From Dickeya solani IPO 2222 (GTDB lineage Bacteria > Pseudomonadota > Gammaproteobacteria > Enterobacterales > Enterobacteriaceae): 32,000 nt of DNA. The position numbers were made by a program, and so were the translations under genes. The stretch covers positions 3,000,001 through 3,032,000 of the forward strand of contig NZ_CP015137.1 of assembly GCF_001644705.1 (NCBI RefSeq), given 5' to 3'. Below the pieces are notes generated by a model. That model was not told the DNA's origin and did no database searches. It saw only the letters and a list, made by a program, of their open reading frames with translations. Positions 11,583-30,800 of the stretch are shown here, piece after piece (position 1 is the stretch's first letter; every line of letters starts with the position of its first letter).

Positions 11583-13141
11583 GTGATACCTATTGAATGC
11601 ATCCAGTTCGCGTTTTACTCAGCCATTTTCTACAACTTGTAATGCCTGTCACAAGTGGAGAAAATCAATGAATACTCTTGTCAGTAACACCAGCCTGTCG
11701 GGGACACTGATTGCCCTGGATATCGCTAAAAAACATCATGATGCAAAAATTCGACACCCGGATGGACGAACATCTTTCCTGCGTATTGAAAATACACTGG
11801 AAGGGTTCAACCGATTGCTTGCGCTCACCGCTTCCCCCCATGATGATATTATCGCGGCCTTTGAACCTACAGCTGATTATCACCGTAACATCGCATGGTG
11901 GTTACATAAGCAGGGCGTAAAATGCCATCTTGTTTCATCTGTCAGATGTGCGCGAGCGCGTGAGATGCTGTTTAAGACCTGGGATAAAAATGATCGCAAA
12001 GATGCCAGTGTCATTATGTATTTGCTCGAACAGGGATTATCTTCACCATTTTATGATCCTCTGGCGAATGGCATTATCGATATACAGGAGATATCAAACA
12101 CATACCATCAGGTTACTCTGGCTCGAACCCGATGCCTGAACAGCCTGGTTAACCACTATCTGACCCTTTATTTCCCCGAGGCTGAGCAATTTCTGCATAT
12201 GTCCCGGGCAGAGTGGTTCTGTCAGTTTTTACTTCACTTCCCTACACCGTCTTGTATCACATCACTGAACCGGGATGTGTTTGTAAAACAGTCATGGGAT
12301 GTTGTTGGCAGGAAACAGTATAAACAGCAGTTTCTTGAACATCTCTATGATGTTGCTGCGGATTCCATTGCATTACCGTTGTCAGAAGATTCTCTGGCAG
12401 TGACCACGTTCAGATTACAACTTCATCGTTATGTCGGGCTTTCGGCACAGCGATTGCAGCTTGAAAAGCAGGCAGAAAATTATTTACAGGAACGGAGTGA
12501 CTACAGGCACTTACGTACGATCCCCGGTATTGGCGCCATCATTGCCCTTATGATAATTGCTGAAAGCGGTGATCTGACACGTTTCGCTCATTACCGGCAG
12601 TACCTCAACTTTTGCGGTTTTAATCTTTCCGCCAGCCAGAGCGGGCAAAAGCACAGTGATTACAGATTGTCGAAACGTGGAAATGCGCGGTTAAGATATG
12701 CCTTCTGGCTTGCCGCCACCGTAGCCGTAAGAACGAGAGAAAACAGCTTCCGCTACAAATATGAACGTTATATTCGGGAAAATGGAGATAAGCCAGATCA
12801 GAAAAGAAAAGCCATGACGGCTGTAGCAACAAAAGTCGCCAGAGTGGCGCATGCAATTGTAAAGCAGGATATTGATTACAAAGGGTATTATGAAATAAGC
12901 CATGGGACGTGATTCAACGGGCCGTAAGGCGCATCGCGACCATTAGATAATGCTCAACGCCCATGGTTTCCCAAAATGCTGTGTTAAGTCCTGTCGGGCC
13001 ATTCGGACCCTTGTATGTCATGGTAAGCATATTTATAAGCCGAAAGGAAATGAGCGATATCGGATACAACAATGAACCATCGCCTTTGTATTAGATGGCA
13101 GGATCCTTGCGCGCAAAAACTGTTGATTCAAACGGTAGTCC
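11583..13141 (+). mobile_element. IS110-family element (IS1111-like layout) inserted into IS3 orfB
   Basis: The host orfB codons ATGGACAACGG|CCCGGAGCTG are separated by ~1.56 kb. The junctions are ambiguous by 2 nt (GT occurs at both sides). There are no terminal inverted repeats, as expected for this family. Confidence 0.7.
11668..12912 (+). CDS. IS110-family DEDD transposase/recombinase
   Basis: ATG at 11668 follows GGAG. It has an N-terminal RuvC-like DEDD pattern (LIALDIAK, AFEPTADYH, DRKDA). The C-terminal motif is IPGIGAIIALMIIAESGDLTRF...SASQSG. Confidence 0.85.
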   Translation: MNTLVSNTSLSGTLIALDIAKKHHDAKIRHPDGRTSFLRIENTLEGFNRLLALTASPHDDIIAAFEPTADYHRNIAWWLHKQGVKCHLVSSVRCARAREMLFKTWDKNDRKDASVIMYLLEQGLSSPFYDPLANGIIDIQEISNTYHQVTLARTRCLNSLVNHYLTLYFPEAEQFLHMSRAEWFCQFLLHFPTPSCITSLNRDVFVKQSWDVVGRKQYKQQFLEHLYDVAADSIALPLSEDSLAVTTFRLQLHRYVGLSAQRLQLEKQAENYLQERSDYRHLRTIPGIGAIIALMIIAESGDLTRFAHYRQYLNFCGFNLSASQSGQKHSDYRLSKRGNARLRYAFWLAATVAVRTRENSFRYKYERYIRENGDKPDQKRKAMTAVATKVARVAHAIVKQDIDYKGYYEISHGT

Positions 13142-14032: not shown

Positions 14033-14816
14033 GCTATCTTTGCTAAAGAAGACATTAATGGACCATTACCGAATCTCCTCTTTATCTCTGGTGATAATGA
14101 AAATAGAAATTATTTTTCTCGTATGAAAAAAATAATGGAAGAAGAGGTTTTTTTTATATTTTAATAAAGTTGGTGATGGTTGGATATACCGGGGTGAAAG
14201 GCAAATAATAAGGTTGTTAGAACCATCATCTTTTGAAGCTATGCAAGTCTTGAATAAGGAAGTATGTCGCTTAGATGTAGTTGGTTACAAAAAAAATGAA
14301 CCATTTTGGCAGCTAATTAAAGATGAGAGATATTTATTTGAAAAGCCAAGGGTAATTGAATTTATAGCAGTGATCGATCTGCAATCTTCTTCATTTTTAT
14401 TCAATAAAGCAGAAAGCTCAGTCATTGGTAGAGTAAGGGAGGCTATTATTCGAATTCGTTTAGATCAGAGAAAATTTTCAGCATCAGTAAGTAAACTATA
14501 TAAAAATAAATGTATTATAACTAATGCCCCTAAAATTAAGGATTCACTATATGTTCAGGCATGTCACATTTCAAATGAAAGAGACTCTGATTATAACTTT
14601 CTCGATAACTCATCTAACAATGGAATATTATTAAGAGCAGACCTTCATGCTCTTTTTGATAAAGGATTGATAACAATTGATGCAAAAACAGGTATCGTTA
14701 CTTTTGCAAGTAAGGAGTTGCAATCATTTTACTCTGAGTATCATAACAAACTATGTAAGTCATGGGGACTTGTTCCAAACAAAGCAAGAGAAAATCTTTC
14801 TAAAATTAATATTTGA
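14033..14816 (+). pseudogene. HNH endonuclease of the modification-dependent (type IV-like) kind. The 5' end is lost at the IS boundary and the frame is broken at a T8 run.
   Basis: The C-terminal HNH_2-type motif is RLDQRKFSASVSKLYKNKCIITN...VQACHIS...NGILLRADLHALFDKGLITID. The upstream frame (AIFAKEDINGPLPNLLFISGDNE...MEEEVFF) joins the downstream frame (LYFNKVGDGWIYRGE...) only if one T of T8 (14148-14155) is removed. Confidence 0.6.
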
Positions 14817-14984
14817 TCTTAATTTTTCATGATGAATTGTAATATACTTAAATATAAGATGGTCATGTTTTTTTAATTTTCACATTTTAATAAAACCATC
14901 AATAGTAATTTTTAAATTGTAAATATAGCTACATTGAACAATCAGAAGATAAATAATAATATTTTCATGAGTTTATCTGTTTTA

Positions 14985-15012
14985 TAATGGCCAGATTTAT
15001 CTCTGGCTATTA
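14985..15012. terminator. Hairpin between convergent genes (candidate bidirectional terminator)
   Basis: TAATGGCCAGA (14985-14995) pairs with TCTGGCTATTA (15002-15012) across a 6-nt loop, in AT-rich flanks. Confidence 0.45.
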
Positions 15013-15101
15013 ATAATTTTACCAGCGTGGTTGTTTCTAATATTAAATCAGTCGTTTTCCAGTGTTACTATCAGTTAATAATGGGGTTGTTATTATTTAC
15101 T

Positions 15102-15734
15102 CTACTTAGAAATCGGTTTGGGGAACTCTTTAGAGAAAAGTTCTATGGTAATCTGTAAAAGTTCTAAAGCGTTTAAAATATATGAATGCATTTCTTTGGA
15201 GCTACATCCTTTTATAGCTAAAAGATAAGTGGAATGAGAGTATTTTAACGAAAGAATTCTATAAACTGAATTGTAAAAACGACCGACTTCAGAGGCGTGT
15301 GCTGCGTTGTAAATGCTATATCCACTACTCTCTGTAGGGGATTGAGTAAAATCTTCAATGACTTTTTTAAATTTTTCCTTTTTATCTTCGTTAATATTTT
15401 CGTAATCATTAGGTGCTAAGTCTGCATCAAGTATTTTTGCTGTTTTTTCTAATTCCACAGAAGACGAATTTTTTATTATATCTAAAAAATCTTTTTTTCT
15501 TATCAGAGCAAAAATATTAAAAAAGTGCTCTATAGATAATCTATGGATAGCAAGAGCTTCATTGTAAAACCCACCTTCAATAAGAAGGATCATCGATTTG
15601 TTATTTTGTATAAACAACTCAAAAAACGATATTGCTATTTTTACTCTTTCTTCAAATTCGTTTGTTTTTATGTGAGAAATAATTTCATTTGCATCTTTAA
15701 TAAGTATGTTTAGCTTAGATATGTTATGTTTCAT
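15102..15734 (-). CDS. Hypothetical all-helical protein (~210 aa) with no motif I can name
   Basis: It is a long ORF in very AT-rich DNA, where stop codons are frequent. ATG at 15734 is preceded by GAGAG. Any resemblance to DUF5677-type helical proteins is only an impression. Confidence 0.6.
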   Translation of the reverse strand: MKHNISKLNILIKDANEIISHIKTNEFEERVKIAISFFELFIQNNKSMILLIEGGFYNEALAIHRLSIEHFFNIFALIRKKDFLDIIKNSSSVELEKTAKILDADLAPNDYENINEDKKEKFKKVIEDFTQSPTESSGYSIYNAAHASEVGRFYNSVYRILSLKYSHSTYLLAIKGCSSKEMHSYILNALELLQITIELFSKEFPKPISK

Positions 15735-16043
15735 AAACTCTCTCAATAATTAATTCATCTAATTAAATAGTTAATTTTAAGGCAATGAAATATGAAGTTA
15801 TACGGTTTTTTTTCAATTCCCAGAATAATATCTCCATTTTTTATGAGGTGTTTTTAATGAAATTTATGATGCTAGAATTTACATAATTTATCCTCAGTGA
15901 ATTTTCGTGTTTTTAGCTAGCTTTATTATTTTTATGAAATAAAGAATTAGATTGTTTTTTACTTACATCAGAATATTTTTCTTGGTAAGCTATTTGTTCT
16001 AATCATAATGGAAATCACGCTACTTAGGTATTGGCTAGTATAC

Positions 16044-16220
16044 CTAATGTTTGTAGTGCTTTAAATACATTTCAACAAACATATCACGAGACTCAACTTC
16101 ACGACCAAGAAGCTGCTTCTTAAACTCGTATATTAGGGGTATTTCGTTCTCAGTCAACGGGGAACGTCCATCATAGTTTACAAATGAGTAAATCGATTCG
16201 CTGAGCTCTTTGATATCCAT
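16044..16220 (-). CDS. Small hypothetical protein (58 aa), divergent from hcp
   Basis: It falls below the ORF-track cutoff. ATG is at 16220 with AGGA 4-5 nt upstream. It translates to MDIKELSESIYSFVNYDGRSPLTENEIPLIYEFKKQLLGREVESRDMFVEMYLKHYKH. The stop codon overlaps a hairpin (TTAGGTAT...ATACCTAA). Confidence 0.35.
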   Translation of the reverse strand: MDIKELSESIYSFVNYDGRSPLTENEIPLIYEFKKQLLGREVESRDMFVEMYLKHYKH

Positions 16221-16310
16221 ATCATCCTAATCATTATAATTGCAACAATGGCCTTGAATGTTCATTAACGATAATATGCAAATCGTAGAACCATTGAAAA
16301 GGAAATTTAT

Positions 16311-16796
16311 ATGGCTAATTATGCATACATGACTATCGAAGGTAAATCACAGGGATTGATTTTTGAGGGTTGCTCCACATTAGAATCTATTGGTAACCGA
16401 TATCAGGCAGGACATACCGATGAAATCATGATCCTGGCTTTTAACCATATGATGAGCAATGACGGTCATGCTGTTCATAATCCTATCACTCTGGTAAAAC
16501 CTATCGATAAGTCAACGCCGTTACTGGCAATGGCATTAAACGAGCAAGAGAAGGTCAAAGTGTTGCTAGATTTTTACCGCACGACGCAACATGCCAAGCA
16601 AGAGAAGTTTTTCTCCATTCAGATCAATGATGGACTCATATCTGATATCAACCTCGTCATGCCTAATATCATTGATGATGGTGCTGGCCTGATATTGGAG
16701 CATATCTCTATCAGATATAAAGATGTGACATGGACGCACCACAAAGCCGGAACGTCTGGCTATGCATTGTGGGAAATGACGAAGTTTATGAACTAA
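16311..16796 (+). CDS. hcp: Type VI secretion tube protein Hcp (orphan copy)
   Basis: The protein is 161 aa. It matches the Hcp pattern YMTIEGKSQGLI..GCST.ESIGN....GH.DEI ... KPIDKSTPLL ... ISIRYKDVTWTH..AGTSG. AAGGAA lies 7 nt upstream of the ATG. Confidence 0.85.
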   Translation: MANYAYMTIEGKSQGLIFEGCSTLESIGNRYQAGHTDEIMILAFNHMMSNDGHAVHNPITLVKPIDKSTPLLAMALNEQEKVKVLLDFYRTTQHAKQEKFFSIQINDGLISDINLVMPNIIDDGAGLILEHISIRYKDVTWTHHKAGTSGYALWEMTKFMN

Positions 16797-17178
16797 ACAA
16801 GATGCAGGGTTTCTCCTTGCATCTATCTATGTGAGTTGACACTTTTTGGATTCAAGAGCATACCTGACCGAACAGATAACTTTGTGCTAAGTGCTGATAC
16901 CGTTAACATCCAAGTGAATTGATTAATTGGGTTCAGATTATGAAGAGTAAATTTATGTCTGCATCTAATGAGATGTAAATTGCTATTGTTACTCTAGTTA
17001 GATTATTAGATGATAAGTAGGTAAAATCAGAAAGTCGCAGCTTACAAAATGATGTCTCTGCTGAGGTTTTTTTATTCACTGAATGGTATGTTTTCTTAAA
17101 ATAATTATTATTTACATGGTTTTTTATAAAATAGCAAGTGTAGTATCACATGATAAAACTAACTAGTTGGGAATTGAC

Positions 17179-17838
17179 ATGCCTGAACAAACCAAAAAGA
17201 TATATTGCAATAACTGCTCTTGCGAAACGAGGCATTCTATCCTTTTCTACAAGAAAAAAATGAACGTAGAAGAAGAAGGAGATCAAATCGTGTGGTTTGA
17301 GGAGGATAATTATTATTTTTCTGAGTGCATGGGGTGTGAAAATATAACACTGCACATAGAGAGCACATATAGCGGGTTGGATAATGAATATTATACCACT
17401 CAATTTCCGCCAAAGATAATAAGGAAAGAACCCAAATGGCTATATAGAATTGATGGTGATGGTATGGTGTTGGGGACATCTGATAAGATAGAAATATTTA
17501 GAGAGATTTATATTTCACTTAAAAACAACACACCTAGATTAGCAGTTATGGGAGTCAGAGCATTGCTCGAAATGGTAATGATAGAAAATATTGAAGATCA
17601 AGGTTCATTTGTGAAGAATCTGTCGAAGCTGAAAGAAAGTGGTTATATTTCAAACTATCAATTCGAAGCGATTAATAAAGTTATAGAGGCTGGTCACGCG
17701 AGCATGCATAGAAGCTATAAGGCATCTAGTGATGAAGTCTCAAGTATTATGGATATAACTGAAAATATTATAGAGTCTATTTATATAAATAAGTTAAATA
17801 TAACGAAAATAAACCCATCTCCCAGGGTTAAAAAATAA
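17179..17838 (+). CDS. Zinc-ribbon / DUF4145-like protein
   Basis: It has an N-terminal CxxC...CxxC (YCNNCSC...SECMGCEN). The C-terminal helical region (AVMGVRALLEMV...LKESGYISNYQFEAINKVIEAGHASMH...SIMDITENIIESIY) fits the DUF4145 pattern, but the usual Arg before the G-N/H-x3-H is absent. Confidence 0.65.
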   Translation: MPEQTKKIYCNNCSCETRHSILFYKKKMNVEEEGDQIVWFEEDNYYFSECMGCENITLHIESTYSGLDNEYYTTQFPPKIIRKEPKWLYRIDGDGMVLGTSDKIEIFREIYISLKNNTPRLAVMGVRALLEMVMIENIEDQGSFVKNLSKLKESGYISNYQFEAINKVIEAGHASMHRSYKASSDEVSSIMDITENIIESIYINKLNITKINPSPRVKK

Positions 17839-17883: not shown

Positions 17884-19630
17884 TGTGATTACCAAGGGAT
17901 ACTGACGGAATAATTACCGGGCGATTTTGTCGTTATCACACTATCAACGCCCTTCGATTCAGGCAAAGTCTTTTGCGGTATTAGATAGCGATTCCACTTT
18001 GGCTAACCTAAGGGCTATCGTATTCATATTCTCGCGCAGCCAGATGTAACGGACGCCATTAGGGCTAATATCTGCTGAGTAACGATCGTTCATCTGACGT
18101 GATACCTGCACTTGACCAAGATGAGGATTACGTAGAGAGAAGTCGATAATCAGCCTTTCCAGGGCTTCTTCTGTTCGGTTCTTGTGCCGTAAACCTGGTG
18201 TCTCCTGGCGCTTGAGGGCATCAATACCTCCTTCTTTAACCAGCCGTCTGTGACGGTGAATGGTTTCCCTTGATACGCCGCTCAGGCGCGAGGCCTCTGC
18301 TACGTTACCCAGCCTGTCAGCCAATGCGAGTACACCAAGCTTTTTCTGGATATCGATATCCTCCAATGAGGCTTTAGTCGGCTCTGTCACCTCTGATACC
18401 TGTAATTGTCTGCCTGCAAAATAGGCGCTGAACTGTTTATCTTTTCCTGCTCGGATTTCGATTTTCTGATTGGCGATAGAATGCCTGAGCGGTGATTCAA
18501 TGAAATAGAATTTATTGCCGTAGCTGAATGTATGGTCATTGCGGATCTTGCGATAAACCTTGGTGATGCAGATATCATCAAGATTTATGTACCTCGACAG
18601 CGGGGTATATTCGGAGGCGGGTGTTCTTGCTTTGACCGTTAGTTTCTTGCGCCAGAATTGCGGTATAAACACATGCTGAAGGTAGCTGTTAGCACCTGCC
18701 ATATCAATAATATTGTGCAGTCTCAGTTCCGGTATGAGTCGGTCTTGCAGGGTATCGAAGGCACGTTCAATACGCCCTTTGCCCTGTGGTGAGCTGGCAA
18801 AGATGATTTCGATACCCAATTCCTCACAAGCCCGCTGCATCTGGGAGAAGTTGCAACGTTTGGGGCCACCAAAGATACCCGCCCGGTCAACGTACAACGT
18901 CTTAAACACACCATACGTCTCAATAACTGAGCGCATGACTTTCAGGCAGCCTGCGGTGGTTTCTGACAGGAAGAATTCAGCGTGAATATCGCTATTGGCA
19001 TCATCAATCATCGCAATCAGACAGGATTTGTTATTGCCAAACCAACGGTGAGTGCTGCCGTCCATTTGTAGCATCAACCCCGGCGCTTCCATTCGTTCCC
19101 TGCGTTTGTGAACCCGACTTCGCCTGCGCTTTGCGCGTTTTACATGATGAATATCGTGTGCCCATTTTCTCAATGTTTCACGCTTCACGACGAGGTGTTC
19201 ATTGGCTTCCAGCATTTCAGCGAGATGCAGCAAATTCAGGTCATAGTATTTTTCACGGATAAGCGTTTGAACCTGTTGTTTTACTGTATCTGGCGTTTTA
19301 TTAGCAGGTTCACTCCCCGCGTTGCCATGAATAACAAACTGGAGCCCCTTTTCTCGATAACGCTGGAGATAGCGTTCGATGGTACGTCTGGACTTATTGA
19401 GGAGCTTGGCGGCATTGGCAATAGCGATTTTACACTCAGCCACTTTTGCAATGACATCCACGGTCAATTGAGCTTTGGAGTTCAACGTGATCATCCTTAG
19501 CATCCTGTGAGTGTACAAAAAACACTCAAAGAACACGGTTATGGATCAACCGTCAATTTCCCATGGTAATTAGCAACTACGACAGAATCGCGTGGTAATT
19601 AAAGTACGACAAAATCGCTTGGTGTTAACA
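17884..19630 (-). mobile_element. ISNCY-family (IS1202/ISPlu15-like) insertion sequence
   Basis: Imperfect terminal inverted repeats are TGTGATTACCAAGGGAT (17884-) and the reverse complement TGTTAACACCAAGCGAT (-19630). A ~24-bp subterminal motif (..ATTACCnnGCGATTTTGTCGT) occurs twice at the left end and three times at the right end. The element is flanked by direct repeats cATtATGTGTATTAG (17869-17883) and cATaATGTGTATTAG (19632-19646). Confidence 0.7.
17959..19503 (-). CDS. ISNCY-type DDE transposase with an extra C-terminal HTH-like region
   Basis: It has an N-terminal HTH (NAAKLLNKSRRTIERYLQRYREKG) and an rve-like core (LMLQMDGSTHRWF...AMIDDANS...LYVDRAGIF...SPQGKGRIERAF). The last ~125 aa resemble the N-terminal HTH module of IS481-type transposases. 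The start codon is uncertain (19503 or 19494). Confidence 0.8.
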   Translation of the reverse strand: MLRMITLNSKAQLTVDVIAKVAECKIAIANAAKLLNKSRRTIERYLQRYREKGLQFVIHGNAGSEPANKTPDTVKQQVQTLIREKYYDLNLLHLAEMLEANEHLVVKRETLRKWAHDIHHVKRAKRRRSRVHKRRERMEAPGLMLQMDGSTHRWFGNNKSCLIAMIDDANSDIHAEFFLSETTAGCLKVMRSVIETYGVFKTLYVDRAGIFGGPKRCNFSQMQRACEELGIEIIFASSPQGKGRIERAFDTLQDRLIPELRLHNIIDMAGANSYLQHVFIPQFWRKKLTVKARTPASEYTPLSRYINLDDICITKVYRKIRNDHTFSYGNKFYFIESPLRHSIANQKIEIRAGKDKQFSAYFAGRQLQVSEVTEPTKASLEDIDIQKKLGVLALADRLGNVAEASRLSGVSRETIHRHRRLVKEGGIDALKRQETPGLRHKNRTEEALERLIIDFSLRNPHLGQVQVSRQMNDRYSADISPNGVRYIWLRENMNTIALRLAKVESLSNTAKDFA

Positions 19631-20111
19631 ACATAATGTGTATTAGCTCAGACCTGATCTGGCACTGTTACTGCGCAGAACTAAACTTAATCTGACAGGC
19701 AGCTCTGTGCCAAGAGCGGATGTTGTGGAATATTGCTTCACATTCGCCGCTCTGTCGTGGCGGTTCTCTGCCACTGAGCAACATTACCAGCTATCACAAC
19801 CCGGCCTGTGACACCTCACGTAACACGCTGGGGATGGCCCCTAAGAGCGGTAACGAAGCTACCATGACTTTTTATTATGTTAATGGCTTTGCAGCGTAAG
19901 ATGAAGGCTAGTTTTTTCAGTGCAGCTTAAGACCATCATTCACACGCTGGGCGGGTCTCGAGAGTCTTGTTGCAACAACACCTGGAAGGCTGACACAGGT
20001 TGACAGTTGGTTGTGATTACTCATTTGCTGACAGCCATACGCACGAAATATTACTTAATTCTCTGTCGAATATGCCGTTAATAAACAGATGGATTGAAAG
20101 GAACAAAAACT

Positions 20112-20615
20112 ATGAAGCAACTATGGGAAAAACTGGAAGCCATTCTGCAAGACATCGACCCTGATTTATTAGCAGATCTTGCTCCCCCGGCCACTGATGA
20201 GGACATCGCCACGTTAGAGCAGGCTCTGGGTGTGAGTTTGCCTGCCGATTTTGTTGCCTGCATGAAAATTCACAATGGCCAGCACGGTATTAGCCACGGA
20301 CTGTTTGATGAATGCGAGTTCTTATCCACTTCGCGCATTTTACAGGAGTGGCGCATCTGGAAAGGGTTACTCGATGGTGGTGATTTTGATGGAGCTGAGT
20401 CGTGTCCGCAAAGCGGTATTCGTCCGGAATGGTGGAGTCCCGCCTGGATCCCGTTTACTTACAATGGGGCGGGCGATCATCTTTGTCTTGACCTCGCGCC
20501 GACTGACGTTGGGATTCGCGGGCAGATTATCACGCTCTGGCATGATGATGGAGCGCGTGAAAAACAAGCGGACAGCTTCATTCAGTGGTTCACGCAGTAT
20601 GTAGAGCAAATGTAG
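20112..20615 (+). CDS. SMI1/KNR4 (SUKH-1) family protein, a putative immunity or antidote component
   Basis: ATG at 20112 is preceded by AAGGA. Family hallmarks are present: LEQALGVSLPADFVACMKIHNG, EWWSPAWIPFTYNGAGDHLCLDL and IITLWHDDG. Confidence 0.8.
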   Translation: MKQLWEKLEAILQDIDPDLLADLAPPATDEDIATLEQALGVSLPADFVACMKIHNGQHGISHGLFDECEFLSTSRILQEWRIWKGLLDGGDFDGAESCPQSGIRPEWWSPAWIPFTYNGAGDHLCLDLAPTDVGIRGQIITLWHDDGAREKQADSFIQWFTQYVEQM

Positions 20616-20652
20616 GTCTTTTTGCAATAGGTTCGATAAACCAGGAGGGTAA

Positions 20653-22191
20653 ATGGATTTAACATATGAAGAATTAAAACAGCAGCGCCTGCAGAAACTC
20701 TTTAATGATTGCCGGCAGCAAGTGTTGTCACAAATTATCGGGCCTTTCGGGCTTTCAACGGCCATGTTTGAAGATCGCAACGGCGGCAATGTGACAACGT
20801 TGCATAATTTCGAGCGCGAAGAGTCGGATTTCATTGCTGATAAAGACATGTCCAGTCATGCGAAATCGCGTCAGGATTACCAGCGCAAAGAGTATGAAAG
20901 TAAAGATTTTACAGAAAAAAGCAAGAAATTACGGGCCGGCGGTGTTGATGGTTATACGGGGAAAACGACCAATGCTGCGGATATGGATCTCGATCATGTC
21001 ACTTCATTAAATACATTGTCCAAAAATAAGAAAGTGCATCTTGCTCTGGAAACCGGGGAAGGTGTTGAAAAAGTAGTGAAAATGGCCAATGCAGACGAAA
21101 ATCTGGTGACCACACATAAATCGATTAACCGTTCCAAAGGTGCAGGTGAACTGGATACTTTTGCAGAAAAAAATGGTGAAAGGTTTGAGCTGGATCCAGA
21201 GCGAGTCGCAGCAGCGAAGAAAAAATCGGATGACCATGTTTCGACAACGCTTAACTCGGCGCTGATGAAAAAACAGGGAAAAGAGTTGTTGCAAACAGGC
21301 GGCCAACAGGCGTTGCAGATGGGGCTGCGACAAGCACTTGGTTTGCTGCTCACTGAACTGGTGAATGGCTTGTTTAATGAATTCAAAGTTCTCATTCAAC
21401 ACGGCGTTGAGGTAAGTAAAACGTTATTTGAGGAGATCCGCCAGCGCTTAATGCGGGTAATTGCTTCCGTGGTCAAAAAAATCCCCGATGCGCTGGGACA
21501 AATGTTCCAGGGGGGTGTGAGTGGATTTATGAGTAATTTACTCACCTTCTTGCTGAATAATTTTCTCTCAACCGCAAAGCGTTTCGTTACCATGATTCGG
21601 GAAGGGCTGTTGGGACTTTTCCGGGCGTTTAAAATGATTTTCTTCCCACCGGAACATATGACGCCAAATCAAGCGTTACAGGAAGGGTTGAAAATCCTGA
21701 CTACTGTCATCGTGACTTCAGTCGGTATGTTATTGAACGAAAGCATCGCGACGTTTATGGCGACAGTACCGTTTCTGAAACCATTTGCAGATATGCTAAC
21801 GCCAGTGCTTATTGGTATTGCCACCGGGTTGCTTTCTGCTTTTCTCGCATATCAGATAGACACGTTTTTTGATCGCTCCCGTTTTTCGCCGAGCGAAAAA
21901 CTGATGGATGAGATGCTCGCAGATAGCAAACGTCGGGAAGCATTTGCCAGTGAACTGGTGACTCTTTCAGAGAGTTCGCTGGGTAATATTGAAAATTACG
22001 CGAACGCAATAACCCAGTATCAAGCTATTGGGGCAAACCTGGCTACTGCCACGATCTCGACTACAGCAATGCTGGTAAGTCTTGAGAGGACAACTAATGA
22101 TACGGCTGTGCAGGTGGTGCGGAGTACCGCTGCAATTGCGTTTATTAATGAAAGCCAGGCTGAAATTGATGATTTTCTGAAAAATATTTGA
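20653..22191 (+). CDS. Membrane-embedded HNH nuclease-like protein (512 aa)
   Basis: There is a strong RBS (CCAGGAGGGTAAATG). The HNH core at residues ~99-163 is DGYTGKTTNAADMDLDHV ... ENLVTTHKSINRSKG. At least three hydrophobic helices lie at residues ~290-400 (LLTFLLNNFL, ILTTVIVTSVGMLL, MLTPVLIGIATGLLSAFLAY). Confidence 0.75.
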   Translation: MDLTYEELKQQRLQKLFNDCRQQVLSQIIGPFGLSTAMFEDRNGGNVTTLHNFEREESDFIADKDMSSHAKSRQDYQRKEYESKDFTEKSKKLRAGGVDGYTGKTTNAADMDLDHVTSLNTLSKNKKVHLALETGEGVEKVVKMANADENLVTTHKSINRSKGAGELDTFAEKNGERFELDPERVAAAKKKSDDHVSTTLNSALMKKQGKELLQTGGQQALQMGLRQALGLLLTELVNGLFNEFKVLIQHGVEVSKTLFEEIRQRLMRVIASVVKKIPDALGQMFQGGVSGFMSNLLTFLLNNFLSTAKRFVTMIREGLLGLFRAFKMIFFPPEHMTPNQALQEGLKILTTVIVTSVGMLLNESIATFMATVPFLKPFADMLTPVLIGIATGLLSAFLAYQIDTFFDRSRFSPSEKLMDEMLADSKRREAFASELVTLSESSLGNIENYANAITQYQAIGANLATATISTTAMLVSLERTTNDTAVQVVRSTAAIAFINESQAEIDDFLKNI

Positions 22192-22201
22192 GAACAATAA
22201 G

Positions 22202-23224
22202 ATGAGTTTGTTAAATAAGCAGGAACTTCAGGTCATTCAGGCCTTTTCGTCCGCAGATTTGCCGGAACGTCTCTTTCGCGACAGCAACATTAACGAATTA
22301 ATCAGCGGCATGACGGAGGAGCAGCAAACGGTTCAGAAGAGCGCAAAGGATCTTGATTGCCTGCGTAGGGAACAGAGGGACGGAAACTTTATAACTAACT
22401 GGTGGAACGATCGCGACGATCTGTTACAGGATGCACAAATCGATCTCAATAAAGCCATTGGTCGCCTGACGCAAAAATCTTCTCAGTTATTGATTGTCAA
22501 TACGGCACTTTCCAAACTACTGAACCAGCAACAACAGATTTTATTGAACCAGCAAAATATTCTGGAAGGTCAGACACATTCTCTTGCTGAACAAAATGAA
22601 CAGATCCTGAAACACCAGGTGCTGCTTGAAGAACAGCAAAAAGAGATTAATAAGGCCAACCAGGGGCTGATGGATGCCAAAGGCGTAACACAAGAGCAGG
22701 CTAAGCAATTAATTGGCTGTGTAAAGCGGGTGACAGAAGCGGAGAACAAAATTGGTGACGCAAACGCAACGTTGCTCACAGAACTTGAACAGCGTATCGC
22801 GAAATCTGCCTCGGATTTTGCACAGCAGTTGCAGGGCGGCCTGGCGGAGCAGGGAAGGCAGTATAACATTCTCGAACAGATGATGGTGGATAACCATGCC
22901 GTTCAACAGAGTTGCGTTGAAGCTATGCAGCAGTCGTTGTCGCAGGAGCAACAGCAACTGTTTGCTGAATTGGAGCGAAACCGTCTGGCTCTGCTTGATT
23001 CGGTACAATCTACCGCAAACCAGTGTGATGCACTCCAGCAAGAGTTATCCCTTATCGTGACGCAGCATGTCGACAGCCAAACAAGCACCGCTAATGTTAT
23101 TGCTGCGTTACAGGGAGAATTTCGCCAATCCCGATCTCGTCACCGTTTTGCGCTAACGGCGATGGCCTGTGCTATTGGGCTTTCTGTCGGCTGGCAAATA
23201 GTGCAGCACTTTTCGATGTTCTGA
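22202..23224 (+). CDS. Q-rich coiled-coil protein with a single C-terminal transmembrane anchor (340 aa)
   Basis: It starts 10 nt after the stop of the previous gene. About 200 residues have a Q/L/E heptad-like sequence (LLNQQQQILLNQQNILEGQTHSLAEQNEQILKHQVLLEEQQKEINK...). The C-terminal segment FALTAMACAIGLSVGWQIVQHF is hydrophobic. Confidence 0.7.
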   Translation: MSLLNKQELQVIQAFSSADLPERLFRDSNINELISGMTEEQQTVQKSAKDLDCLRREQRDGNFITNWWNDRDDLLQDAQIDLNKAIGRLTQKSSQLLIVNTALSKLLNQQQQILLNQQNILEGQTHSLAEQNEQILKHQVLLEEQQKEINKANQGLMDAKGVTQEQAKQLIGCVKRVTEAENKIGDANATLLTELEQRIAKSASDFAQQLQGGLAEQGRQYNILEQMMVDNHAVQQSCVEAMQQSLSQEQQQLFAELERNRLALLDSVQSTANQCDALQQELSLIVTQHVDSQTSTANVIAALQGEFRQSRSRHRFALTAMACAIGLSVGWQIVQHFSMF

Positions 23225-23233
23225 TTGTGTTAA

Positions 23234-23258
23234 ACCGCATCGCTTATGCAGATGCGGT
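23234..23258 (+). terminator. Hairpin closing the three-gene operon
   Basis: ACCGCATC (23234-23241) pairs with GATGCGGT (23251-23258) across a 9-nt loop, 10 nt after the stop codon. The T-tract that follows is weak (CATTGTTCC). Confidence 0.5.
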
Positions 23259-23389: not shown

Positions 23390-24656
23390 TTATGGCTTCA
23401 GTAAGGGCGAGTGTCGCGCTTCGAGAGCCAGCAAATATTTTGCTTCGTCGTACTGGGTTCTGGTCTTCCAGCAGCGGTAAATGATCCTTATCCATTTGAA
23501 TGCCAGAGCCCGGATTGCTGACTGATGAGATTTTCCTTTTTCTCGCAGCCCCTGATAATACAGCCTGGCCCAGTATGATGAGTTAACCGTCTTGGCAGCC
23601 CATTCAACAAAGGTCTGCCTGACGACTGCCATCGCCAATGAACCCAGGATTTCTGGCCACTTCGTTCTGTCACCGGTGCAATACCTGCGTAGTTTTGAAT
23701 TTCTTCAGCGCTGTTAAACCGGTCGCGGTTATCACCAAGTGCAGCAAGCATCCTTGGGCCCATGCACGACCCCATGCCCGGAAGTGATTTGAACAGCCCC
23801 GCATCTGGCAATGCGTCAAATAGCGTTTCGATTCGTTCGTCATAGGTTTTGATAATTTCACTCACGACTTTAATTTGTGTCGCCAGTGCTGTTGCCATAA
23901 AGCATTAGCCTCTATAACACTCTGATCTGTAGTCAATGGGATAGCGTTATCAATACTCGCAACACGCTGCTCGGTAAGGACCATTGCACGGCCACCTTTG
24001 GCATTCAGAAAGTTGCGGACCGTGTCGCGCCTGGCACGTTTCAGTTGCTGCAGACTGGGCCACCGTATAATCAGTTCACACAACAGTAGGCTGCCCCGGT
24101 GTGAGAACCATCCCAGTGGCTGAGGATAATACTGTTTAAGCGTATTGATTAACCGATTTACAAAGCGTCGTTTATCCTCAACCAGTTGACGACGTTGCTC
24201 AACCAGTTGCTGTAGCAATCGGATATCGGCGTTATTGGGTTCAATGGCTTTTATCTTTTGGGGATAGCGTAGCATTAATTCTAATGCCAGCTCGGCATCC
24301 TGCGGATCATCTTTAGCACCGCTGGGTGAGAAGGCTTGCCGGTAACGAGCCAGGGACAAAGCGTGGACTGGGAAAACGGTGATAAACGGATATTTCTGAA
24401 GAGAATACACCACGGGTCCCTTTTTCAGCCCAAGGGCGATAGCGATCCTGCCTTTTACCTTCTGGTGTAACTTGGTAAGCCAGATATCAAGCGATTCTGC
24501 GGTATGTTCAATCACGTGGAATACGCGTTCGCCGTTTTTAAACTGAACACAGACATCGTGTTTTTTATCTGCCCAGTCCAGACCAACATGTGCAGCAAAC
24601 TGATTAGTTGCAGTCATCACCAACTCCTTTTCATCGGGGATTGGTATGCATTCCAC
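23390..24656 (-). pseudogene. IS110-family transposase gene broken by two frameshifts
   Basis: Three consecutive ORF pieces lie in different frames: MTATNQFAAHVGLDWADKKHD..., then MATALATQIKVVSEII...LPGMGSCMGPRMLAAL...TERSGQKS, then ...VRQTFVEWAAKTV...AFKWIRIIYRCW. The frame changes fall near 23895 and 23630. Confidence 0.8.
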
Positions 24657-25161: not shown

Positions 25162-25563
25162 TTAGATAGCAAAGGTTTCCAGCGTTTTACCACTTTCCAG
25201 CGCAGCAGCGATAGCTTTAGGCGTTCGGCCCTGACCTGTCCACGTCTGTTCGTTGCCGTTTTCATCAGTATATTTGTATTTGGCAGGACGGGGAGTACGT
25301 TTGTTTTTTGCTGTTTTACTGGTAACAACAGCGCCGAGCAGTTCAGACGGATCAATACCATCTTCCAGCAGTTTTGCACGTAAGGCTTCAATTTTAGCCT
25401 GACGTTCTGCGTTTTGTTGCTGTGCGCTGGCTTCTTCTCCACGCCGGTCTTCAACAATGGCGGTCAGTTTTTCCAGCATTTCTTCCAGTGTTGCCAGATC
25501 GGTTTCACGAGCCTGAGCACGAAGGGTGCGAATGTTATTTAATATTTTTAGGGCTTCACTCAT
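25162..25563 (-). CDS. hns: H-NS family nucleoid protein, island-borne paralog
   Basis: [20 protein letters not shown]...EEMLEKL...DGIDP.ELL...[27 protein letters not shown]. The termini are near-identical to canonical H-NS, while the central linker has diverged. A ~300-bp AT-rich region lies upstream. Confidence 0.9.
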
Positions 25564-25863
25564 TATCATTTATCCTGAATGTTGAACGTCATAAACATCA
25601 TACTATAAACGATAAAATAAAGCAGATACTATAAATTTGCTTGATGCTTGATTATCCATTTTTGTAAGTTTATATTTCTCGTTCTTGAACTGTTTTTATT
25701 TTTTGTTAATTGAATGGTATGTGAAAATAGAAAGCGCGATAAAAAGATAATTAATCTGGAAAATACGGCGACAATATTGACAGTAATATCGGAGAAATCC
25801 TGCGTTTTCCGCGCCATACTTACGAACGGATTCTGTTTGTTGACAATATCGGCAGGCAACTTA

Positions 25864-26082
25864 TTAAAAATCAAATAAACTTTGCAGTTGAATCTCCAAC
25901 CCGTCAGCAATCACCCCAATCACTTCCAGAGTCGGATTCCTAACGCCCCTCTCAATGCCGCTGATATAGGTGCGATCCAAACCGCACTTGTCGGCGAAGG
26001 CTTCCTGGGAGAGCCCTGCCTGTAAGCGAAGCGTTTTTACACGTTGCCCAAAACGGGCGGTGATATCTTTTGTATTTTTCAT
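25864..26082 (-). CDS. XRE-family HTH regulator of the restriction-modification controller (C-protein) type, copy 1
   Basis: ATG is at 26082. The core is LRLQAGLSQEAFADKCGLDRTYISGIERGVRNPTLEVI. Degenerate C-box-like sites lie upstream. Confidence 0.8.
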   Translation of the reverse strand: MKNTKDITARFGQRVKTLRLQAGLSQEAFADKCGLDRTYISGIERGVRNPTLEVIGVIADGLEIQLQSLFDF

Positions 26083-26105
26083 GCCGATAAGCATCATCCC
26101 ATGTT

Positions 26106-26131
26106 GCTTATCAGACCACGGACGATAAGTC
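26106..26131 (-). promoter_or_regulatory. Degenerate C-box pair upstream of regulator copy 1
   Basis: The minus strand reads GACTTATCGTC-CGTG-GTCTGATAAGC. It also overlaps the dyad GATAAGCA-N11-TGCTTATC (26086-26112). Confidence 0.45.
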
Positions 26132-26175
26132 ACATATAGACTACTTCGCCGATTTAATCGATAAAGGTTCAAAAA

Positions 26176-27438: not shown

Positions 27439-27846
27439 TTATAAATTATATTTAATCCATTTATCGTCATAGAAGCTGAATCTTTCTTTTTTATCAATAC
27501 GCCATTCATCTTCTTTAAATTGAAGGGTATAGCGAAACTTATTTTTGGCTTCAGTGTATTGCTGGGTTATAAAAACACATTTATTCTTATTTAACTCACT
27601 GCTTAATACTTCTTCATCTGGTGAGTATTCCGGTGGTTCACCACATGATAGCGATATTTGCCTGCCCTGTTTTCTTTCTTTTTTTGTGCAGAAGAGATCA
27701 TATATATCATCAAGTTCCTTTTTGGCTGCATCTTTATACGCAGTCATTCCTTCATTTCTGAATAATGGGTAATACTTCAACTCCCACTGATTCATTTGAA
27801 TGATAAATTCTTTTAGAACCTTTTCAGCTTTAGATAACTCAGTCAT
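27439..27846 (-). CDS. Rhs C-terminal-toxin immunity protein (RhsI)
   Basis: It starts 9 nt after the rhs stop codon, with AAGG overlapping that stop. It is AT-rich like the rhs tip. The 135-aa cytoplasmic protein has a position and size typical of a cognate immunity gene. Confidence 0.7.
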   Translation of the reverse strand: MTELSKAEKVLKEFIIQMNQWELKYYPLFRNEGMTAYKDAAKKELDDIYDLFCTKKERKQGRQISLSCGEPPEYSPDEEVLSSELNKNKCVFITQQYTEAKNKFRYTLQFKEDEWRIDKKERFSFYDDKWIKYNL

Positions 27847-27855
27847 AAAAATACC

Positions 27856-30800
27856 TTAGTTATTGAATATTCTACCAAAGACTTTCTGTCCATTTTGATA
27901 GACGTCATAGTAGATTTCTGTAGGTCGGGTTCCACCATTGCCATATTTAAAGGCCCATTCAATATCAACCGAACCATGCTGCCCGATATAATCTTTCACA
28001 ACCTTTTCAAAGTCTCTGTATTGTCCGCGGTTAATAGCAGGCAACTGCGGGAACACATTCCCTTTACCGCCTTGACCACCAAGCACATTGCCTAATATGT
28101 GTCCGGCATCATCGGTTTGATTACCTAATGAACGGGCGTAATCTCTGGAGCTTTGATTCGTTCCGGAACCCGTTCTAAGCTCGGCTTTCGATACGGTGGC
28201 TTTGGCTGATAATATTTCCCCGTTAGCGCCATGAGCTAACGTCGGGCACTTCGCCAACCCAAATGGGTCGACCCAGCACATGGGATTTGAGACATACCCG
28301 TAGTTACTCTCTCCCCCCGCTATCCCTATCGGGTCCGGCGACACATAGCACCCGCCGGCCGGGTCGTAGTACCGGAAGCGGTTATAGCACAGCCCGCTTT
28401 CGCTGTCACGGAGCTGCCCGGCGAAGGCCAGACCCGGGTCCGGACTTTCCGATTTTTCTGTCTGCCGCCGGCCCCACAGCGTGGCCTTCGGTGCCTGCCA
28501 GCGCAGGGTGCCGTCGTGCGCGAACAGTGCTTGCGGGGTACCGTTCTGGCTGCTGGTCACAAAATCCGTTTCCCAGTCGCCGCCGGTGTGCTGGCGCTGC
28601 TGCACCACCAGCTCCCAGCCGTTGTACACCCAGTGACGACGGGCCACGAGCTGGCCGTGGCGGTAGTGGCGGATTTCCGCTATCTGGTCTCCGTCCCACA
28701 GGTAGCGAATCTCTTCGGCTTTCTGGTCGCAGCGTTTACCCACCCGGCGGCCGAACGGGTCGTAACGGTACAGCCAGCGTTCGCCGGTCGGGGTATCCAC
28801 CACCCGCAGCTGGTTGCGGCTGTCCCAGCGGTACTGCCATACCTGGGGGCGGTAACCCGGCTGTACCACCTGTTTACGGATAAGCCGTCCGGCCCTGTCG
28901 TACTGGTAATGGGCGTCATCGCGCTGAACCAGTCTGCCAGACTGCCACTCGGTGAGGCGTCCTGCCTCCTGCGGCAGGCCGCTGCGGGTGTAGTGGTAAC
29001 GGGCGGTAGTGTCTACCGGTTTGCCCGCCCCGCCGCTCAGGATTTCCTGCACCCGACCGGTGGCGTCCAGACGATAACCTTCGGCATCGCGGTTGTGACG
29101 TACCCCGGTCAGGTTGCCGGCACCGTCGTAGCGGTATTCCCGCGTCTGCGCTGGTTGCAGGCGGCCGTCGTGCTGTGCGCCGCTCATTTCCCGCGTCAGC
29201 CAGCCCATCACGTCGTATTCCCGCTGCTGCACAAAGCCGCCGCCGGTGCGGAGCGACTCGCGGCCCGCCGCGTCCTGGGTCAGGGTCAGCTCGGCACCGT
29301 CCGGCAACTGCACCTGCCGCAGCTCGCCGGTGCGGGTGTAATGGAACAGACTGGTGAGCGGCGCGAGGGTGCCGGTGGTGTCATCGGCGTCGTCGTCCCA
29401 GGTCAGGGTGCGGGTGACGGTGCGGGCGTTGTCATCAACCTGGCGGGTGAGCAGCGTGCCGTTGTGCCATTCGCGCACCACCCGGTCGCGCAGGTCGTAT
29501 TCCAGCTGCACATGGGCGGTGGACGAAGAGACCTCGGTCAGGCGGCCCACCGCATCGTACCGGTAGTGCAGGGTGTCGTCCGGTGCGGTTTCACGCAGCA
29601 GCAGCCCGCGGGCGTCGTACAGAAAGTGGCGGGTGTCGCCTTCGCCGTTGTGCACGCGGATGCACAGGCCGTCCTCATCGTAGTCGTAGTGGGTCTCGGT
29701 GCCGGCCATGTCGCGCTCGCGGATGACCCGCCCGTCGGCGTCCAGCCACCACTGCCAGCGGCTGCCGTCCGGGGCAATAACCGTTGTCAGTTGCTGGCTC
29801 TCTTTATCGTACTCGTAGTGCCAGGTGCGGCCTTCGGCGTCGGTGCGCGCGGTCAGCAGGTCGAACGGCCCGAAGGTCTGACGCCACAACGCGCCGTTGC
29901 CGTCCACGTAGCTCAGCAGGTTGTTATGGCGGTCGTACTGGCGCTGCTCTTCCTTGTCATCCGGGCGTATCAACTGCTCCGGTAGCGTCCAACTGGCCCG
30001 GCGGTAGCCGAGCCGGAAACGGGCACCGTCCGCCCGTTGCCACTGCACCACCCGGTCCTGCCTGTCGTAGCGTAACTGCTGGGTACGGCTCTCGGCGTCA
30101 GTGGCGCTCAGCAGCCGCTGACGGTGGTCGTACTGCAACCGGGCCTGCGTGTCACCGGCGGCGTCGCTTACCTGGGTCAGCAGGCCGTAGCGGTTCCAGG
30201 TGAATCGTACCTCGCTGGCATCCGGACCGGTCAGCCGCTTCGGGTTACCCTCGGCGTCGTACACCCAGCCCCACTCGCGTCCCAGCGGGTCGGTGACGCC
30301 GCACAGCCGCTCGGCGGCGTCGTAGTCGTACTGCCACTGATGGCCGCTGGCGTCGGTAAAGGTGCTGACCCGCCCGGTATCGTCCAGATAGGTGAATTCG
30401 ACCACCCGCCCGGCGGGCGAGATTTCCCGCAGCAGGTTGCCAACCTCGTCGTACTCGTAGCGGGTGACGTGGCCGAGCGGGGATTTTTCCCAGCTCATCA
30501 GATGCAGGTCGTTGAAGCCGAATTCGCTGCGCTGGCCGAGGCCGTCGGTCATCACCACCCGGTCGGGCAGGTAGTCGAAACGGGCGGTCAGAAAACCGTC
30601 GGCGCAGGTGGTGTAGACGCAACGCCCCTGCGCGTCGTATTCGTAGCGCGCCCAGGTCTGGTCGTTGTCGTGCCAGCGGGTCAGCCGGTGGACGGCGTCG
30701 TACTCGTAATAGAGGTGATAGGCCTGGGTGGCGTCCGCTTCCACCAGTCGGCCCTGTTCGTCCTGGCGGTACTCGGCCAGCAACGTCTTCTGGCCGCCAT

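Follow-up and report, generated by a model that had tools for sequence, protein, structure and literature searches.

What does a three-gene operon set between insertion sequence (IS) elements do for the plant pathogen that carries it? We examined this for a locus of Dickeya solani IPO 2222, in a window of 32,000 nucleotides (nt) taken from the forward strand of the chromosome (NZ_CP015137.1, 3,000,001–3,032,000; nucleotide positions below are counted within this window). The operon encodes a SUKH-1 protein (gene 1), a predicted HNH nuclease with a membrane region (gene 2) and a tail-anchored coiled-coil protein (gene 3), and a first-pass annotation had proposed it as an undescribed toxin–antidote or defence module without a match to any named system. 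Our analysis shows that the operon is intact and that it has already been catalogued as the candidate system PDC-M40. We consider it probable, with appreciable room for doubt, that this is an anti-phage defence locus acquired horizontally by D. solani, whose products would form a membrane-sequestered HNH nuclease complex.

The identity of the locus follows from searches with the profiles of PADLOC-DB v2, in which all three proteins were matched over their full length. PDC-M40A matched gene 1 (component A; E 1.4e-84, residues 1–166 on profile positions 1–166 of 169), PDC-M40B matched gene 2 (component B; E 2.7e-272, residues 1–511 on positions 1–546 of 547) and PDC-M40C matched gene 3 (component C; E 1.3e-160, residues 1–339 on positions 1–343 of 344). 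Order and strand of the trio also fit cassette CAS_00143, in which A>>B>>C lie adjacent on one strand. Payne et al. 2024 (bioRxiv 10.1101/2024.01.29.577857) took their candidates from genes lying within BREX, DISARM and type I restriction-modification (RM) loci, and their supplementary file 8 lists CAS_00143 as FAM_02470>>FAM_01369>>FAM_02062, with a count of 79 and the entry 'Assign as candidate PDC-M40', next to a two-gene cassette, FAM_01369>>FAM_02062, whose count of 7 lies below the cut-off. The proposal that the trio matches no named system was therefore wrong, and at the sequence level we detect no difference between the window trio and PDC-M40. The word 'undescribed' is still fair for the mechanism only: the PADLOC entry is a catalogue candidate without a domain description or mechanism, the main text of Payne et al. 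2024 mentions neither M40 nor SUKH nor SMI1, and our literature searches found PDC-M40 under no other name.

What, then, do the components look like? Computation on sequence conservation and on a structural model predicts an HNH (His-Me finger) nuclease for gene 2, one of the Cas9/GmrSD_C type. The catalytic motif lies where the first-pass annotation had placed it, with D99 at nt 20947 and K162 at nt 21136. Conservation of the HNH residues among homologues had been set beforehand as a check on this assignment, and it proved to exceed chance by far. In 29 homologues with at least 55% identity, D99, Y101, D114, H115, N150, N159 and K162 are invariant; in 31 homologues reaching down to 29% identity, which span Proteobacteria, Firmicutes, Lentisphaerota and Campylobacterota, H115, N150 and N159 are still invariant, and Y101, T102 and D114 are at least 90% conserved. 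An AlphaFold2 (AF2) model of gene 2 has a predicted local distance difference test score (pLDDT) of 88–94 over residues ~55–205, and its secondary structure places D114-H115 on a strand (residues 111–115), N150 at the start of the next (151–155) and N159 in a helix (156–162). The N-x8-N spacing of N150 and N159 is presumably equivalent to that of N854 and N863 in Cas9.

The predicted fold agrees with this assignment. Searching the PDB with the HNH domain using Foldseek returned top matches that were all HNH domains, including the Cas9 of several species and the Gme HNH nickase (4oge, probability 0.95; 4h9d, TM-score 0.53, probability 0.93; 8f43; 5vgb), while among the viral models of BFVD the best non-homologous matches were HNHc, EndoVII and GmrSD_C proteins. 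Pfam searches with the 31 relatives of gene 2 detected GmrSD_C (DUF1524) in eight, with a best E of 5.6e-5, and GH-E in three; gene 2 itself matched endonuclease VII in PHROG (E 9e-4), and the public annotation of one member of its 90% cluster reads 'McrA'. The window's own genes 2 and 3 match no family significantly in Pfam or NCBIfam, and among PDB sequences phmmer retrieved nothing for gene 2 and a profile search only a designed repeat protein. Matches to an RcGTA tape-measure model (E 0.028, gene 2 residues 219–300), MASE7, SMC and a deaminase were treated as noise or as effects of coiled-coil composition.

A second conserved element precedes the nuclease domain of gene 2. Within residues 20–55, G33, D41, G44, G45, V47, T49 and N52 are invariant in the same 31 homologues, a level of conservation equal to that of the catalytic residues, and the motif is also kept in a phage homologue described below (gp118 of phage D3). 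The model has pLDDT below 50 in this stretch and we found no match to a known domain; the motif could be a partner-binding or DNA-binding element.

Downstream of the nuclease, gene 2 continues into a hydrophobic helical region, for which the first-pass annotation had described three strongly hydrophobic helices. The hydrophobic region itself stands, and the strength ascribed to it does not: by hydropathy, one segment is strong (residues 381–402, Kyte–Doolittle (KD) value 1.98, family mean 2.1), one moderate (345–370) and one weak and polar (283–307), and residues 311–330 form an amphipathic helix. Positive charges flank 283–307 and follow residue 402, and the loop at 371–380 is short, a pattern which suggests that residues 345–402 form a membrane hairpin with both of the protein's termini on the cytoplasmic side. 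On hydropathy and charge, this helical hairpin is the likely membrane anchor, and we infer from the same pattern that the nuclease domain faces the cytoplasm.

Conservation of the helical region equals or exceeds that of the nuclease domain, with G287, G291, T298, N302, T307, R316, P333 and K347 invariant in the 31 homologues, which raises the alternative that gene 2 is a membrane-disrupting abortive-infection effector whose helices form a depolarising pore, with the HNH-like domain in the role of DNA sensor or second effector. The invariant small and polar residues G287, G291, T298, N302 and T307 are of a kind typical of helix–helix packing or pore lining, and membrane effectors are frequent in defence systems, Cam1 being one example (PMC10808066). 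However, the catalytic set (D/H, N, N) is invariant in its entirety throughout the family, which argues for catalysis and not for binding alone; the single strongly hydrophobic helix also fits a pore poorly, and neither Pfam, nor the PDB profile search, nor Foldseek detected similarity to known pore-formers. We regard a pore as decidedly unlikely, and retain the nuclease as the probable active part of the complex.

To place these features in the family, we ran an exhaustive profile search with gene 2, clustering at 50% identity, which yielded 1018 clusters, 434 of them at E<=1e-30. Almost all clusters retain query positions ~5–405, which comprise the nuclease and the hydrophobic core. We then collected 56 loci from species-dereplicated genomes, 52 of which are full-length and were scored with hidden Markov models (HMMs). 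In 44 of these 52, gene 2 is immediately followed by gene 3; SUKH immediately precedes gene 2 in 27 and is missing in 25, so the conserved core is the gene 2–gene 3 pair, and SUKH is an accessory. The expectation that the trio would be kept as a unit elsewhere was thus borne out for genes 2 and 3, whose adjacency as a conserved operon recurs across loci, and not for gene 1.

Gene 3 presents itself as the Gln-rich coiled coil with a C-terminal transmembrane segment that the first-pass annotation had read from the letters: Gln makes up 15% of the protein, the AF2 model is all-helical (helices 65–159 and 166–339), and R315, S328, W331 and Q332, in or near the predicted membrane anchor, are at least 90% conserved. 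Foldseek matched the model only to generic coiled coils. Its companion in gene 2 appears to be the C-terminal tail. Of 46 loci in which this tail has at least 60 amino acids (aa), 44 have gene 3, against none of the six with a shorter tail; the tail-less forms probably make up one clade, which limits how independent this association is. The co-occurrence is the best available evidence for the tail as the site at which gene 3 docks, and suggests that residues 403–512 are a docking module.

That gene 1 encodes a genuine SUKH-1/SMI1_KNR4 protein, as had been proposed, is borne out by a score far above the gathering threshold of Pfam PF09346 (86 bits against a cut-off of 25.4, E 4e-24, residues 26–161). 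Its proposed role as a restraint on the nuclease is weakened by the survey. SUKH accompanies gene 2 in only 27 of 52 loci, and in the 31-homologue alignment the HNH catalytic residues are invariant with or without SUKH in the locus. Since these residues are invariant in loci that lack SUKH, and since a phage homologue of gene 2 that has neither SUKH nor gene 3 beside it also keeps them, SUKH is not a universally required antidote; it is an optional accessory. In five of the 52 loci (L039, L047, L049, L050 and L055) a TerB/DUF533-like membrane protein with glycine- and alanine-rich hydrophobic segments occupies the upstream position of SUKH. These loci represent a third architecture, in which gene 2 has no C-terminal tail and gene 3 is absent. 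Literature searches found no characterised defence system that contains SUKH or KNR4.

Does the company that the family keeps speak for defence? Type I BREX surrounds the trio in Pseudomonas paraeruginosa and at four more loci of Pseudomonas, Stutzerimonas and Marinobacter, in the order BrxC, PglX, [A-B-C], GmrSD-like, PglZ, BrxL. In Citrobacter, the closest relative (gene 2 95% identical), GajA of Gabija lies directly upstream, and an HTH-WYL-WCX regulator (BrxR/CapW-like) occurs in 13 of the 52 loci, in most cases immediately upstream and in the same orientation. Around the trio on a Klebsiella IncF plasmid lie genes for TerB-N/ATPase/helicase, DUF1778-GNAT (toxin–antitoxin), TIR and ATPase plus UvrD proteins. 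These BREX, Gabija, WYL and plasmid-island contexts, which come from independent lineages, favour defence over an exported effector, the preference already expressed from the sequence. As a separate observation, P. paraeruginosa ATCC 9027 (L013:2484-18819) carries both the trio and a GmrSD-like gene (PADLOC Orf5/HEC-06) between PglX and PglZ, which sets two HNH-type modules side by side.

The mobile contexts also bring in an addiction (toxin–antitoxin-like) or plasmid/mobile-element exclusion module, in which the nuclease would act either against cells no longer carrying the element, by killing them, or against conjugative or transforming DNA, by cutting it as it comes in. A homologue is carried by 68 plasmids, and the module is frequent on large conjugative ones, as well as occurring in IS-flanked islands and beside toxin–antitoxin genes. 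The two-gene form lies on an E. coli mcr-1 plasmid. Complete genomes of E. coli gave no DNA match to the trio. A membrane nuclease would, moreover, meet any entering DNA, whether from a phage or not. Yet the signature of a labile antitoxin is missing, about half of the loci do without the putative antidote SUKH, the BREX embedding and Gabija adjacency point to phage defence, and the module is also common on chromosomes without a mobile-element context. An addiction or exclusion module seems unlikely to us, and anti-phage defence is the reading that we carry forward.

The surroundings in Dickeya itself suggest something else, a setting that the first-pass annotation had overlooked. A PAAR-DUF6531-RHS-Endonuclease_NS_2 toxin gene with its Imm-NTF2 gene has the island on its downstream side, and the island contains an orphan Hcp, so the trio could be a type VI secretion system (T6SS) or polymorphic-toxin effector–immunity cassette among orphan modules downstream of an Rhs locus, in which gene 2 would be exported as an HNH toxin, perhaps in association with Hcp or Rhs, and SUKH would be its immunity protein. 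SUKH-1 is reportedly, after Zhang, Iyer & Aravind in 2011, the classic immunity family against nuclease toxins, and known SUKH-immunity/HNH-toxin pairs resemble the locus in placing a SUKH-1 gene beside a nuclease of the HNH/EndoVII superfamily. In the trio, however, the gene order is reversed, SUKH lying upstream of the nuclease and not downstream; the nuclease is N-terminal and conserved, unlike the variable C-terminal tip of such toxins. Pfam finds no PAAR, Rhs, MIX, LXG or VgrG domain in gene 2, and the Pfam and NCBIfam matches agree with the earlier statement that gene 2 carries no polymorphic-toxin trafficking domain. SUKH is missing in 25 of 52 loci, yet the HNH residues are unchanged in the 31-homologue alignment. 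The trio is also convergent with the Rhs operon, from which IS110, H-NS and XRE genes separate it. A tblastn search with the window's Hcp, Rhs-PAAR, Imm-NTF2, HNH_2, DUF5677, DUF4145 and H-NS proteins found none within 10 kb of gene 2 at the 56 other loci, and the secretion linkage is therefore confined to Dickeya. We judge an exported effector to be very unlikely, and the defence reading stands.

A homologue outside cells bears on the same question. A full-length homologue of gene 2 is present in the Aeromonas jumbo phages D3, D6, D9 and LAh10 (~260 kb); in D3 it is gp118 (524 aa, L063:2462-4036). Aligned with gene 2 by hhalign, gp118 reaches a probability of 99.9% and E 1e-34 over 379 columns that take in the GGNVTT motif, the D-H/N/N core and the hydrophobic helices; it also matches PADLOC PDC-M40B (E 9e-31) and is recovered by Foldseek (E 3.6e-10). 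The copy in LAh10 is mis-annotated as 'cobalamin adenosyltransferase'. We found no annotated SUKH gene near D3 gp118, and gp119, considered as an equivalent of gene 3, was rejected (hhalign probability 0.1%). That the phage copy has no partners implies that the core of nuclease and membrane region can stand alone, and a lytic phage plausibly uses it for superinfection exclusion or DNA degradation.

Such a homologue could also mean that the family has a phage-derived function outside host immunity, as a virion- or injection-associated membrane nuclease or a domesticated superinfection-exclusion protein. The full-length copies in the four phages would fit this, as would the position of D3 gp118, which has a gene with the annotation 'tail assembly chaperone' ~1.1 kb away on the other strand, and the very weak resemblance of gene 2 residues 219–300 to the RcGTA tape-measure model. 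That match is non-significant, though, and the homologue occurs in one phage genus only in a set of 50,697 phage records, compared with more than 1000 clusters of cellular origin; phage copies of defence genes are common, and these would be compatible with an exclusion or defence role. We find a phage-derived function highly improbable, and return to host defence.

How might the complex work? Computation establishes the HNH identity, the hydrophobic anchor segments, the tail-anchored coiled-coil partner, the operon with its co-occurrence, and the defence contexts; the sequence of events is conjecture from these. Gene 3 would dock on the tail of gene 2 and form a long cytoplasmic stalk, and tethering to the membrane would keep the nuclease away from the chromosome, as a form of self-protection. 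On infection, the complex may cut or nick DNA at the membrane, either the incoming phage DNA or, after activation, any DNA, which would amount to abortive infection. Gene 1 may bind gene 2 or a phage protein and tune activation, in a regulatory or sensor role.

Two membrane-associated systems studied by experiment show such a logic at work. In Zorya II, the ZorAB membrane complex has a long coiled-coil tail that is essential, and recruits the HNH nickase ZorE to the membrane on infection (PMC11890865). SNIPE, a GIY-YIG nuclease bound to the membrane, cuts phage DNA while it is being injected and is toxic when untethered (10.1101/2025.11.03.685801). The likeness to Zorya type II lies in an inner-membrane component with a long cytoplasmic coiled coil and an HNH nickase or nuclease acting at the membrane. 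The trio, however, has neither a MotA/ExbB-like ZorA nor a MotB/OmpA-like ZorB: among the Zorya profiles of PADLOC, only a coiled-coil match of gene 3 to ZorA3 appeared, which is non-significant (E 0.078), and none to ZorB. Furthermore, ZorE is soluble and recruited whereas the HNH domain of gene 2 is fused to a membrane protein, and SUKH has no counterpart in Zorya. With SNIPE the trio shares an inner-membrane nuclease with, as predicted here, a cytoplasmic catalytic domain, and in SNIPE membrane sequestration prevents self-cleavage. But SNIPE is a single protein with an N-terminal transmembrane segment, DUF4041 and GIY-YIG, while gene 2 combines an N-terminal HNH domain, internal hydrophobic helices and a coiled-coil partner, with no match to DUF4041 or GIY-YIG. 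Since the parts of neither system are shared, PDC-M40 can be likened to SNIPE and Zorya at most by analogy.

The nearest Pfam model for the nuclease of the gene 2 family, GmrSD_C, points to the type IV restriction enzymes GmrSD, BrxU, SspE and HEC-06, which combine DUF262 with a DUF1524 HNH domain. Here too the resemblance is partial, as neither gene 2 nor any of its 31 relatives matches the DUF262/GmrSD_N NTPase, GmrSD enzymes lack the membrane region and the coiled-coil partner, and gene 2 of the window falls below the Pfam HNH thresholds. A bolder proposal would make PDC-M40 a class of envelope-associated immunity with a new mechanism, in which a membrane-built HNH nuclease is positioned or gated by a coiled-coil stalk of variable length, is served by exchangeable sensors (SUKH-1 or TerB-like), and cuts phage DNA as it emerges from the injection channel, discriminating by location as SNIPE does with unrelated parts, its core having been captured by jumbo phages for superinfection exclusion. 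We put this forward as a speculation, rather doubtful as a whole.

Several observations count against reading the locus as a defence system built on a membrane nuclease. On the nuclease, the Foldseek E-values of the HNH domain are weak (0.07–1), and gene 2 of the window has no Pfam HNH match of its own, its only Pfam match at E<1 being MASE7 (0.11). On the membrane, one helix only is strongly hydrophobic, and the topology is read from hydropathy and charge, since pLDDT stays below 50 over two thirds of the gene 2 model. On defence, PDC-M40 is among the 145 untested candidates of Payne et al. 2024 (10.1101/2024.01.29.577857), and our literature searches found no experiment on any PDC-M40 member and the name in no main text. 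Many other loci have housekeeping neighbours, and the neighbours in Dickeya are IS elements, the orphan Hcp and the Rhs toxin, with no defence genes. Finally, the occurrence of a full-length, partnerless gene 2 homologue in a lytic jumbo phage means that the family does not serve host defence solely.

The features of the locus are collected in Table 1. The three open reading frames (ORFs), their strand and the gaps between them (37 nt between genes 1 and 2, 10 nt between genes 2 and 3, all on the + strand) are exactly as the first-pass annotation gave them. An alternative upstream start of gene 1, a TTG at 20094, is possible. A consensus scan of the + strand found no sigma-70 promoter upstream of gene 1, a scan that is uninformative. 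The hairpin expected to close the operon is present; its role as a canonical intrinsic terminator is unsupported, the structure having no T-run and modest stability and not being called by a terminator scan, and a non-canonical terminator is possible.

Table 1 Positions of the PDC-M40 genes, of their predicted domains and of the flanking elements in the D. solani window
Feature	Position (nt)	Strand	Length or basis
Gene 1 (PDC-M40A), SUKH-1/SMI1_KNR4 protein, cytoplasmic, accessory	20112–20615	+	167 aa from ATG
Ribosome-binding site of gene 2, AGGAGG, strong/consensus	20643–20648	+	Direct sequence reading
Gene 2 (PDC-M40B), predicted HNH nuclease with hydrophobic helical membrane region and helical C-terminal tail	20653–22191	+	512 aa
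N-terminal motif, gene 2 residues 20–55	20710–20817	+	C20, IGPFGLS, D41-x2-GGNVTT-x2-N52
Predicted HNH (beta-beta-alpha-Me) core, gene 2 residues 99–162	20947–21138	+	D99-x-Y-T-G ... D114-H115 ... N150 ... N159-x2-K162
Hydrophobic helices, gene 2 residues 283–402	21499–21858	+	Hydropathy of protein and family average
Helical C-terminal tail, gene 2 residues 403–512	21859–22188	+	Co-occurrence of tail and gene 3
Gene 3 (PDC-M40C), tail-anchored coiled-coil protein	22202–23224	+	340 aa
Conserved N-terminal helical domain, gene 3 residues 1–185	22202–22756	+	48 invariant columns, all in residues 15–181
Coiled-coil spacer, poorly conserved, gene 3 residues 186–314	22757–23143	+	Insertions of up to ~200 aa in homologues
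Predicted C-terminal transmembrane anchor, gene 3 residues 316–334	23147–23203	+	KD 1.72, no charged residue in 316–340
Hairpin 3' of gene 3, 8-bp stem	23234–23258	+	Free energy -16.3 kcal/mol, z-score -1.72, no T-run
Left boundary, IS transposase	17959–19536	-	525 aa; Pfam HTH_29, HTH_32, weak rve match
Right boundary, decayed IS110-family transposase, two ORFs (23862–24656, 23488–23898)	23488–24656	-	DEDD_Tnp_IS110 and Transposase_20 on separate ORFs

In D. solani the trio stands in a low-GC island full of IS elements. Its GC fraction is 0.47, against 0.32 for the AT-rich block to its left (14–17.9 kb) and 0.60–0.65 for the flanking core, in agreement with the difference in composition noted by eye. 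Pfam supports both a transposase on the left and a decayed IS110 copy on the right, and the label 'IS1202-like' given to the former could not be verified. An intact IS110-family transposase at 11593–12912 (+) brackets, with the decayed copy, the segment from 13 to 23 kb; a composite transposon between the two is ruled out, as the copies have nothing in common at the DNA level and are just 21% identical in amino acids. The trio proteins correspond to ANE76176-8 by exact sequence, and the layout of the island is shared with complete D. solani chromosomes such as CP016928.1 and CP051457.1.

The remaining genes of the island are recorded here in their own right. The trio lies downstream of a classic T6SS Rhs effector–immunity pair. 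Its Rhs gene (27856–31989, -) encodes PAAR, DUF6531 and RHS repeats with a C-terminal Endonuclease_NS_2 toxin domain, and has 1377 aa in the window; it is called at 1448 aa in complete genomes, extends past the window ORF and probably runs off the end of the window. The Imm-NTF2 immunity gene (27439–27846, -) follows it directly. The AT-rich block at 14214–17838 (GC ~0.28–0.38) holds genes for an HNH_2 endonuclease (14214–14816), DUF5677 (15102–15746, -), the orphan Hcp (16311–16796) and DUF4145 (17167–17838), of which the HNH_2 protein alone matches in PADLOC, with a generic HNH profile. An H-NS paralogue (25162–25569, -), which may be a xenogeneic silencer, adjoins an XRE/HTH_3 gene (25864–26172, -); its product is recognised by the RM 'control protein' profiles of PADLOC (E 1.5e-21), and no restriction gene lies beside it. 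Outside the trio, the generic HNH match and this 'control protein' match are the only PADLOC matches in the island. Gene calls vary among near-identical D. solani genomes (L060): in CP051459.1 Rhs is split into products of 326 aa and 1037 aa, and the calls for Hcp, HNH_2 and Imm-NTF2 are shorter, which suggests continuing decay of the island or sequencing differences.

What does the locus mean for the family and for its host? The catalogue entry removes any claim of discovery, and what is new here is a set of structure–function hypotheses, concerning the catalytic residues, the hairpin anchor, docking on the tail, the optional SUKH or TerB-like proteins and the phage homologue. The family is large and has a distinctive architecture. 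PDC-M40 is spread over Proteobacteria, Firmicutes, Lentisphaerota and Campylobacterota, over plasmids and jumbo phages, and its natural variation, with a fusion of nuclease and anchor, swappable partners (SUKH, TerB-like or none) and coiled coils of different length, lends itself to structure–function work. If the proposed mechanism is true, confinement of a nuclease to the membrane would be a third independently evolved spatial discrimination of self from non-self, after SNIPE and Zorya, and SUKH-1 proteins would extend from toxin immunity to the control of intracellular immune nucleases. Dickeya solani is a potato pathogen for which biocontrol with phages is being pursued, and an extra defence system in its genome matters for the choice of phage.

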